Below are positions 60,001 through 62,708 of a DNA stretch of 62,708 bases, one piece after another. Source of the stretch: Escherichia phage PA16; sequence record KP682377.1; one strand, 5' to 3'. The position numbers are program-made. Positions within the stretch are counted from its first letter, which is position 1. Each line of letters starts with the position of its first letter.

Positions 60001-62708
60001 CTCTGTTGTGTGTAGTTTTTTCTGCCAGTTACTGTAATGTTCAGCAGCTTCTCTTCATCGCGCTTTGGCTGCACCAGTGTGATGATATTATCGCCTTCAT
60101 TTTCCATCAGTTCACCTCCTGCGGCGGTTCTGGTAGCGGCATCCAGTGTGACGGTTTCCACGACGCACCAGGAATTATCCACCCATCATTAGCGTCAGGA
60201 TGCCCCGGGATGTAAGTCGCCCACTTCATTCGCCAGTCACCTTTCCTGTCAAACTCCACGGCAACAAGAACGGCTGTTTTGGTATCCGGCATTCGCTCAC
60301 TACAACTTATCCAACCATCCGGAGTTACCGGAGAGTTGCCAGACAGCGCATTCTGCAACCGTTCCAGCTTAACGTATTCCTGAACCCTGTTTCCGTCGCA
60401 CGCCTGAAGCCATTGCTCAGCCTTTTGCGCATCAGTGTGAAAGGCACAAGTGCGACCGTCATCAAATTGCATTTCGTAGAGGTTAGCAATCTGTTCAAAC
60501 TGCGTGTGTGGCAACTTGTAAGTTTGGCTTACGAGTTCGGCTTCCAGTTCTGCTATGCGCTTCTCTGATGCTTCAAGTAACGCCTGCTTATCGCGTAGCG
60601 CTTCTTCCAGTTCAGCAACATGGCATTCACTATCAATAAGGTTGTTCTCTGCTGCTCCCAGCTCAACTCTCAGCTTCCCAACCGTAAGCGCAATCTCCTC
60701 GTTCTCCTGGTCGCGGCGTTTGATGTATTGCTGGTTTCTTTCCCGTTCATCCAGCAGTTCCAGCACGGTAGCCGGGTTAGCCTCTGCTATGAATTCAGCG
60801 TTGCATAAGCCTGAGCATCTGTTTCAACCAGGCAGTTAACATGACATTCTGCAATCACGCCACCGGGTTCTCCTTTCCATTTTTGGCAAACAAAAACTCC
60901 TGTTAAATTGCCGTGCTGGTTAACAGATGTATGCCCTACGATGTAGCTTCCTTTAGTTGCTTTCTCTGCCTTTTCACGCAGTGCCTGATAGTCAATCTTG
61001 CTCATTTTTCTCTTCACTCCGGTATACAAGGATTACTACGCCCCCTCTGCTAATTGCGCGAGCTGGATCCCCTGGTTCCATGCCGTCAATACCGAAGGCT
61101 TCGAAAAATGCATCTATTGCCTTTTGGCGTTGCTCCTGCTTACGGCGTTTATTCCATTTTTTCATGAACAACAGTGACAGCCATCGTCCGCTGCAGAACA
61201 TGATGTAGAAATAACCAAGGAGCGCTAGGCCGGTGTTCAGGGCTGTATCGATCGTTATCGTGGTGTTGATGTTCACTTCACACCTCTCTGTTTGTTGATA
61301 AGTTCAATATCCTGCTGGCAACTGGCGCAAGCTCTGCATCCACGAACAGCCAGGCGTCGCCGCTCATCTATCGGATCGCCACACTCGCAACAATGAGTAG
61401 CAGATGGGGCATTACTATCGGATTTGTATTTTTGCAGGGAGAGATTGCGCTGCAATTCTTCGATTTCAGCGGCGTTGTCGATGATATCTGCCATTTTCCT
61501 TTCCTTCAGGCATGAAAAAAGGAGCCGAAGCTCCTTTGGTTTTAGAATTCGAATTGCCTTGCCCGCAGGCTTTTCAGCATTGGTCTGGCCCGCTGAACTA
61601 CGAAACTCGACTGGTCAAGCCGTGCCGCCTCTCTCAGTAGCACATCTCTGTTCTTCGTCACCATGTAGATGGTCTCAAACGCAATGTCATACAGCTTGTT
61701 CGTGTATGAGGAGTTCAGCTCTTTCATGATCGGATACAGGTGTTTGCTGAGGTCCTGGGCTTTTTCCATCCAGAGTTGCATGTAGCAGAGGAGGATGATT
61801 TCCTCGTCTGTGAATTGTTGCTGTGGTTCTGCTTGTGCCGACTGCATGTTGCGAAGTTTCTTTTCGCACTCGATGAAGTATCTGCGTATCTGTCGGCCTT
61901 TTTCGTTACGCTCTACCATCGCCGTTTCTTTGGCTGTATCGAGGGTAAGGTGGTAGTCTTTTTTCCCTCGCCCATAACCTATTTCCCGTTTCTGGGAAAT
62001 AGCTATATAGTCCTGATTTTCAACGAATCCGTACTCTTCAATACGTTCTGTAATCCACGATGCAAAGCGTTTACCTACTCCAAGAAAAGTATGTAAATCA
62101 CGGGCATTAACGAGAAGAGTGGTTTCGTTGGCGATAGTGCCGTTGAATACGGGGATGAGTTGACTGGTCATGATGACCTCCTTATTTGTTTAGTTTATAA
62201 CCGCCAGTTAGTAGCTGGCGGTCGGGTGTCAACTGAGCCAAATAAGAAGCTCTGGGCATATTCCCCTTGCGGGTGTTGTATTACGCCTCTCCACCCGACC
62301 TTTGTACGGATGTAACTATGCCAAATTGCAGGCATAAAAAAGCCGCAAAGCTATCGGGTGCGGAGACCGCTTATTTGTTCAGTGCGGTCAGTATGCGATA
62401 GCTCTGGAGGATTTGTCAATCAGCGGAATATTGATGAACGGGTAACGGTAAATGCCTCATCCAGAAAATTAACGCAAATTCGCATCGCAAACTTGCGTTA
62501 ATTATCTGAAATATCAAGTTAAATCCCCTTAAATGTTTGGGGCACTATTGGGGCAAAATGTGGTTGTTTGGGGCATATTTGGGGCAAAAAAGAACGTATA
62601 AAGAACGGTGTAAAATTGATTTCTTCATGGTCAAAATGAGGTGTAACAGATTGAAAAATATATGCTCTTGGACGATCTTCGGTAATTCTGTGTTTTTAAT
62701 GCTTCATG

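Follow-up and report, generated by a model that had tools for sequence, protein, structure and literature searches.

A direct repeat of ea22 sequence near both ends of Sp5-type Stx2 prophages, and a natural wrbA stub with the architecture predicted for its recombination

Introduction

Why does an Stx2 prophage carry nearly the same ea22 sequence close to each of its ends, and what would be lost if the two copies recombined? The locus that raises this question lies in Escherichia phage PA16 (KP682377.1), whose sequence of 62,708 nucleotides (nt), in prophage order, is the window analysed here and the frame for all coordinates. An earlier note on this DNA had described a long direct repeat, about 95% identical, between the early-left region and a "decayed" ea22/TraR module at the right end, and had predicted that homologous recombination between the copies would delete most of the prophage, including stx2. 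The explanation that best fits our results, and which we regard as very probable, is that the phage carries two paralogous accessory blocks and that the repeat they share is a substrate for recombination.

The window represents an Stx2a prophage of the Sp5 type from E. coli O157:H7 (genus Traversvirus). Over its right-hand 4.2 kb it shows 100% identity with phage PA4 (KP682372, 62,708 bp) and with numerous sister records, and the corresponding 4.2-kb right end of Stx2 phage II of O157:H7 Morioka (AP005154, a record of 62,706 vs 62,708 bp) matches it at ~99.9–100%. The published length of Sakai Sp5 is 62,708 bp (PMC7430833), and the stretches of Sp5 that we sampled agree with the window.

Loss of stx2 in O157 and other Shiga toxin-producing E. 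coli affects diagnosis and outbreak typing. Such loss is usually ascribed to Int/Xis excision, which restores an intact wrbA.

The ea22 repeat flanks attP, int and xis

A repeat finder returned two adjoining families of direct repeats, one pairing 4407–4672 with 60537–60802 (266 nt, 94%) and the other pairing 4672–4878 with 60801–61007 (207 nt, 96%). Because their spacings, 56,130 and 56,129, are one base apart, a single indel separates the copies, and base-by-base comparison placed it at TTT in 4670–4672 vs TT in 60801–60802. This is the only indel; the remaining differences are 17 mismatches in 266 nt and 9 in 206 nt, which leave exact runs of 140 (4722–4861), 73, 57, 43 and 29 nt. A match of ~470 nt at ~95% within 62.7 kb is far beyond chance. 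The long repeat of the earlier note is therefore real; it extends slightly further than had been described, both copies lie on the same strand, and their identity is close to the estimate made by eye. The minimal efficient processing segment is ~25–30 bp, and the direct orientation of the copies, together with exact runs longer than this, gives them the properties of a recombination substrate.

The repeat was already known, having been annotated by Sato et al. in 2003 as "arrangement c". Records AP005154 (Stx2 phage II) and AP005153 (Stx1 phage), both of 2003, carry repeat_region features named "arrangement cfe; region II" and "arrangement cde; region IV". The "arrangement c" intervals of AP005154, 29736–30171 and 36315–36750, map to window 60556–60991 and 4427–4862; region II "cfe" corresponds to window 60556–61406 and region IV "cde" to 4427–5006. 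Arrangements c, d, e and f of Sato (AP004402, AP005154, AP005153) are thus the same feature as the repeat of the window, although these GenBank features mark the repeats only, and neither the single-base frameshift nor the natural recombination product described below is in the annotation. Both the feature and the mechanism are known; the feature is what lambdoid mosaicism ordinarily produces, here in a prophage that is among the best studied. The repeat copies and the left-hand genes that they cover are as follows.

4407–4878: left repeat copy, from the 5′ two-thirds of ea22 to the junction with the TraR/orf73 gene; "arrangement c, region IV" of Sato
60537–61007: right repeat copy, 94–96% identical to the left copy and one base shorter; "arrangement c, region II" of Sato
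4103–4876, minus strand: ea22 of the exo-xis region, intact, 257 amino acids (aa), Pfam family Ead_Ea22
4873–5094, minus strand: TraR/DksA-type C4 zinc-finger gene, 73 aa, counterpart of lambda orf73, product beginning MADLIDSA

In lambda, ea22 and orf73, the TraR-like gene, belong to the exo-xis genes, and the left locus is a standard exo-xis block. The left ea22 product scores 122.5 bits against Ead_Ea22 (PF13935; cut-off 27), covering profile positions 1–128. A weaker third repeat, 83% over 133 nt, joins the two TraR-like genes of the window (4873–5005 vs 61273–61405).

The position of the copies is best understood on the phage map, for which the elements around the attachment (att) site are needed.

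1–7: att core, 7 bp
29–1339, minus strand: integrase (int)
1392–1676, minus strand: excisionase (xis)
1–1676, minus strand: the block of att core, int and xis, bracketed by both repeat copies in phage order

The right end of the window, 62708, adjoins attR. On the circular phage map a distance of 6,579 bp separates the copies, and between them are the attachment site, int and xis; the spacing of 56 kb is solely a result of integration at attP, which moves the two arms to opposite ends of the prophage. The distance of 56 kb given in the earlier note accordingly holds in prophage order, whereas on the phage map and in tandem lysogens the copies are separated by ~6.6 kb, on either side of attP-int-xis. 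In the tandem lysogen of strain 111, window 57556–62708 is joined directly to window 1–7878 at 99.99–100% identity. This strain (NZ_CP028685, locus 1–13031) carries tandem Sp5-type prophages at wrbA with an attP-type junction between them, and separately deposited replicons of 63,329 bp and 50,155 bp (H71 and H72) have the same junction of right end to left end. Stx2 phage I, of the 933W type, has the same layout with an intact right copy and a 588-nt repeat (98% identity); both of its loci are "cde", and DUF4752 is absent.

Ea22 and Orf73 have been reported to favour lysogeny (PMC7093339, PMC8614690). According to a 2021 review, 933W has two Orf73 genes, orf73 and L0141, and L0141 is placed "within the exo-xis region" (PMC8614690). 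From its description, L0141 probably corresponds to TraR′, the second TraR-like gene, at the right end of the window; in contrast to the placement in the review, the maps of Sp5-type phages and Stx2 phage I put this second gene across attP.

The predicted deletion and a natural stub at wrbA

The geometry fits the deletion foreseen in the earlier note, and a closely related prophage at wrbA provides a natural product of this architecture. In the window, 56,129–56,130 bp would be lost by recombination between the copies, including the toxin genes.

20954–22194, plus strand: stx2A and stx2B, within the 56-kb interval between the repeats and directly downstream of three tRNA genes

As a query we joined window 3907–4878 to 61008–61507, a synthetic Sp5 deletion junction, and searched 5,426 complete E. 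coli genomes. Matches at 80–86% coverage comprised natural ea22-DUF4752-TraR layouts in the early-left region of other prophages and a stub in OkiPb01680 and OkiPb01700, bovine isolates from Okinawa (serotype O156:H25; PMC12613899), where the query matches from the ea22 stop codon onward. The stub occupies wrbA over 6,138 bp and contains int, xis, two small open reading frames (ORFs), DUF551 genes, a frameshifted ea22, DUF4752, TraR′ and Ant, after which comes ymdF; both attL and attR are kept. A search with the stub found 2014C-3061, a human isolate from the USA with a full 61.3-kb prophage at wrbA. Compared with the stub region, this prophage shows 7 mismatches in 7,233 nt over its left arm and flank (99.90% identity) and 2 in 6,569 nt over its right arm and flank (99.97%). 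In a five-way alignment, the stub ea22 is left-type up to the equivalent of window position 4439 and right-type from 4469, with the missing A of the right copy kept, so that the switch falls within a stretch common to both copies.

4440–4468 (= 60570–60598): 29-nt stretch identical in both copies; switch point from left type to right type in the natural wrbA stub

Judged by this alignment, the stub shows the predicted deletion architecture in a sister prophage.

Several results weigh against this interpretation. The exact Sp5 deletion junction is present in none of the 5,426 genomes, and the reciprocal junction (window 60037–61007 joined to 4879–5378) in none at a coverage of at least 80%; 933W-type genomes reach 75% with the reciprocal query only because their right-hand repeat extends into TraR. 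With no Sp5 junctions found, the event is rare or short-lived for this phage. The natural example is a single clone, represented by the two O156:H25 isolates. Its full-length relative in 2014C-3061 has no annotated stx, with 531 bp between the tRNA genes and the carbohydrate esterase gene (the nanS-p position); it was rejected as an Stx phage on these grounds, and the natural example consequently shows loss of a prophage and not loss of stx. The left ea22 of 2014C-3061 lacks its N-terminal part, which reduces the available homology to only ~215 nt. Finally, the hybrid pattern is symmetrical and would fit either direction, from full prophage to stub or the reverse.

As an observation in its own right, the wrbA prophage of 2014C-3061 (NZ_CP027548, 2354000–2372000) is organized like an Stx phage across Q, the tRNA genes, the carbohydrate esterase gene and the lysis genes, and is an stx-less relative of such a phage.

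The symmetrical hybrid would also fit a history in which the stub came first, the 6-kb wrbA element of O156:H25 being an independent mini integrative element, either ancestral or derived from a phage as a 6-kb circle and integrated by its own Int. Having int, xis, attL and attR, the stub could excise and integrate alone, and an identical product would result if this recombination produced a circle from a free phage genome and Int afterwards inserted it; even so, this mini-circle route would still need recombination between the same repeats. The distribution of the element points the other way, with the stub limited to 2 of the 5,426 genomes and to one clone, as against 104 in which its right arm and the flank on the wrbA side are present for 80% or more of their length. 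To build a full prophage from the stub in a simple manner, an incoming phage without int or att would be required, and flanks and arms in 2014C-3061 that are 99.9–100% identical to the stub region fit a recent loss in one lineage. We consider a stub-first history unlikely.

Repeat-mediated deletions and inversions have been documented among O157:H7 prophages; examples are the loss of 47.7 kb between neighbouring prophages across an 822-bp direct repeat, and the Sp11-Sp12 deletions (PMC7430833). Like the present case, these deletions fit homologous recombination between direct repeats, with the loss of tens of kb and one hybrid repeat left behind. Here, unlike there, the homology is shorter and 4–6% diverged, and both repeats lie in a single prophage, so that int, xis and both att sites remain in the product, a stub. 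Our literature search found no paper describing a deletion mediated by the ea22 repeat; the text of Sato 2003 was outside its reach, so earlier discussion is possible.

Paralogous accessory blocks and their proposed recombination

In our reading, Sp5-type phages have two accessory blocks of the exo-xis kind that are paralogous to one another, and in both there is one gene of the Ea22 family and one of the TraR/Orf73 family. One block is the early-left one between exo and xis, and the other, with Ant, TraR′, DUF4752 and Ea22-DUF551, lies across attP at the position of the lambda b region. Integration at attP places the repeat copies at opposite ends of the prophage, 56,130 bp apart. On this reading the repeat is a by-product of modular phage mosaicism and no device with a function of its own, and it very probably serves homologous recombination as a substrate. 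Both RecA-dependent recombination and lambda Red annealing can use repeats of such a length, at a rate that is lowered by a divergence of 4–6%. The recombination would be carried out by RecA or by the prophage's own Exo and Bet (encoded at 5828–7290). The product in Sp5 would be a stub of ~6.6 kb at wrbA with attL, int, xis, ea genes, a hybrid ea22, DUF4752, TraR′, Ant and attR, and the immunity, replication, stx2, lysis and virion genes would all be lost.

The comparison with the lambda b region (ea47, ea31, ea59 and sib) is one of position, since these, too, are leftward accessory genes that adjoin attP on the side away from int; as with the right-hand block, integration parts them from pL and excision reunites them with it. 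In phage order, pL transcripts that run past int would be expected to enter ant, TraR′, DUF4752 and ea22′ (the right-hand Ea22-DUF551 gene) as they do the b-region genes, and only excision would bring the right-hand block back into line with pL.

A more far-reaching version, to which we give only a slim chance, makes the repeats that bracket attP-int-xis a recurrent break-point. The phage would be split there into a 56-kb lytic genome without int or att and a 6-kb self-integrating mini-element (int, xis, ea genes, TraR′ and Ant) that would persist at wrbA and could be moved by Int into other prophages. A mini-element with a life of its own would be compatible with the retention of int, xis and both att sites in the O156:H25 stub, and with two unrelated prophages, described below, in which an ea22-TraR′-Ant block is accompanied by the att arm of Sp5, with homology that extends to within 1 nt of the att core.

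If recombination between the paralogous blocks occurs as proposed, it constitutes a second route of stx2 loss, one that leaves wrbA occupied by a 6-kb stub. Such a stub would still give both att-junction products in the polymerase chain reaction (PCR) with every stx, immunity and virion marker gone, and surveys of site occupancy by junction PCR would score stub strains as prophage carriers. In addition, ea22 and orf73 each have a second paralogue that work on Sp5-type and 933W-type phages needs to take into account; for the Ea22 family, the second gene is intact in some lineages and frameshifted in others.

A single missing base in the right-hand Ea22-DUF551 gene

The right-hand block consists of the following features, listed from left to right.

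59712–60107, minus strand: conserved hypothetical gene, 131 aa (phrog_1621), directly downstream of the right-hand ea22-DUF551 gene
60107–61005, minus strand: Ead_Ea22+DUF551 gene (ea22′), inactivated by one missing A; 72-aa N-terminal fragment (61005–60787) and 219-aa remainder (60766–60107)
60801–60802: frameshift site, TT vs TTT in the left copy (4670–4672) and in the intact allele; AA vs AAA on the coding strand
60992–61276, minus strand: DUF4752 gene, 285 nt, 94 aa, between ea22′ and TraR′; roughly "arrangement f" of Sato
61273–61494, minus strand: TraR′, second TraR/DksA-type zinc-finger gene, 73 aa, 71% identical to the left TraR protein, its 3′ 133 nt being 83% identical to 4873–5005
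61542–62171, minus strand: Ant antirepressor gene (AntA and P22_AR_C domains), upstream of TraR′ and adjoining the attR arm

The DUF4752 gene is found at the right locus only. Both TraR-like genes match PF01258, with 31.8 and 35.8 bits (cut-off 24.9), and their products have DIIDNA and DLIDSA at residues 3–8 and the cysteines of a CxxC...CxxC pattern in the alignment; by these features both are C4 zinc-finger genes of the TraR/DksA family, lambda Orf73 type.

The earlier note had taken the right-hand ea22 to be split by a 1-nt difference near 60790 and fused to a DUF551-type C-terminus. The difference is real, but it lies at 60801–60802, ~11 nt from that position. Against Ead_Ea22 (cut-off 27), the N-terminal fragment scores 40.8 bits over profile positions 1–56 and the remainder 50.2 bits over 69–139; residues 151–216 of the 219-aa remainder cover positions 1–68 of DUF551 (PF04448), its full 68-position profile, at 76.8 bits. 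The right-hand protein therefore has a DUF551 C-terminus where Ea22 has its own C-terminal domain. Restoring one A gives a 299-aa protein that is 100% identical to a protein cluster (P0001) listed on 219 contigs and indexed in 218 blocks of an assembly collection. Because many further homologues also carry both Ead_Ea22 and DUF551, the combination is the native architecture of the gene, and no fusion made by decay need be invoked.

Six P0001 loci were examined. They have a common context of rutG, ymdF, attR, Ant, TraR′, DUF4752, the gene itself, the 131-aa ORF, hok and a BOF protein, and in all six the intact allele differs from the window by the one A and by nothing else in 900 nt. Where a decayed pseudogene module would show multiple lesions or truncations, we found one 1-nt deletion only, and DUF4752, TraR′ and Ant are intact ORFs with full-length family matches. 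"Decayed" thus overstated the condition of the right-hand module.

A sequencing error, or a programmed ribosomal frameshift that leaves the gene functional, would account for a split within a short homopolymer (AAA vs AA) in an allele that is otherwise identical to the intact one. Yet the same base is missing from separately deposited records, among them Stx2 phage II, the Stx1 phage and the PA phages, and the gene is flagged "frameshifted" by the NCBI pipeline in three complete genomes (strain 111, 2014C-3061 and OkiPb01680). The context of the frame change, TAT GCA ACG CTG, contains no slippery X XXY YYZ heptamer such as a programmed frameshift would use, and the N-terminal frame ends four codons past the site. 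On the recurrence across records, the lack of a slippery motif and the early stop we rejected both possibilities, which now seem extremely improbable. Given the one-A difference from the intact allele, its recurrence in records and the absence of a slippery motif, we call the right ea22-DUF551 gene a pseudogene, very recent and with a single lesion, in the Sp5/Stx2 phage II lineage, the gene being intact elsewhere.

The DUF551 end of the gene has further counterparts in the left arm, where the DUF551 domain of EaA is 50% identical to that of the right-hand gene and two extra short direct repeats occur.

2410–3033: EaA gene, left arm, DUF551 match of 83.6 bits
2419–2457 vs 60110–60148: extra short direct repeat, 97%, between the left-arm DUF551 (EaA) gene and the DUF551 end of the right-hand gene
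2600–2657 vs 60285–60342: extra short direct repeat, 91%, between the same two genes

Origin of the right-hand block

The earlier note had further suggested that the right end was assembled from the early region of another lambdoid phage. In the form considered here, Ant, TraR′, DUF4752 and Ea22-DUF551 would have been taken from another lambdoid early-left operon, and the ~95% "c" segment would be a shared mosaic linker in place of an internal duplication. Colinear blocks do exist in the early-left operons of other prophages, and those that bear DUF4752 are 91–94% identical to the window. In an O145 wrbA phage the order ea22-DUF4752-TraR-orf61 continues through to exo. SCPM-O-B-7615 has DUF551-ea22-DUF4752-TraR′-Ant upstream of abc2 (anti-RecBCD), kil, cIII and N, at 91% identity to window 60548–62708, and OkiPb01717 has ea22-TraR′-Ant, without DUF4752, upstream of an anti-RecBCD gene, kil, cIII and N, at 87–96% identity piecewise. 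The uneven pattern at the two loci, with TraR′ and TraR only 71% identical while "c" reaches 95%, is also typical of a mosaic.

On the other side, the homology in SCPM-O-B-7615 and OkiPb01717 spans the whole 537-bp stretch from ant to att and stops within 1 nt of the Sp5 att core, which suggests that these two prophages acquired the block from a wrbA-type phage, so that transfer may have run either way. The two-copy layout is common to 933W-type and Sp5-type phages, so any import must be old. Import as such is plausible, and we hold it as a tentative possibility with somewhat less than an even chance. It concerns the history of the right-hand block and is compatible with the paralogous-block explanation preferred above.

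The prophages of SCPM-O-B-7615 and OkiPb01717 (L006, 9001–11470, and L011, 7001–9198) are at other integration sites and hold the block together with the whole Sp5 att arm inside an early-left operon. Their homology to the window runs up to "GCTTCATGG", no more than 1 nt from the Sp5 att core, which suggests an old Int-mediated joint at a secondary site.

Other features of the prophage

Several features were noted in the att arm itself. A minus-strand RNA hairpin with a 23-bp stem lies at 62462–62508, 200–250 nt past the att core in phage order, which is the position of sib in lambda; the 241-nt hairpin region folds far better than shuffled sequence (z = −5.4). After the hairpin, upstream of ant, lies a promoter-like site, TTGACA-18-CATACT (62390–62419). 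Between ant and the att site, 62212–62300 on the minus strand matches the Rfam family sRNA-Xcc1 (RF02221) over the full model length, at 69 bits vs a gathering threshold of 53. Clusters of GGGGCA repeats, candidate arm-type sites for Int binding, flank the att core at 62537–62590 and 70–95, and their sequence is near-identical in the remnant and L006.

Immediately to the left of the right-hand block is a complete toxin-antitoxin pair of the hok/sok type, at 59416–59590 and 59266–59478, both on the minus strand; a score of 113 bits supports the sok RNA, and Pfam HOK_GEF is matched by the Hok/Gef ORF. Within a late-region ORF, 39780–40453 contains collagen-like nucleotide repeats of the GGX type, in which a 77-nt unit occurs six times at 61–73% identity.

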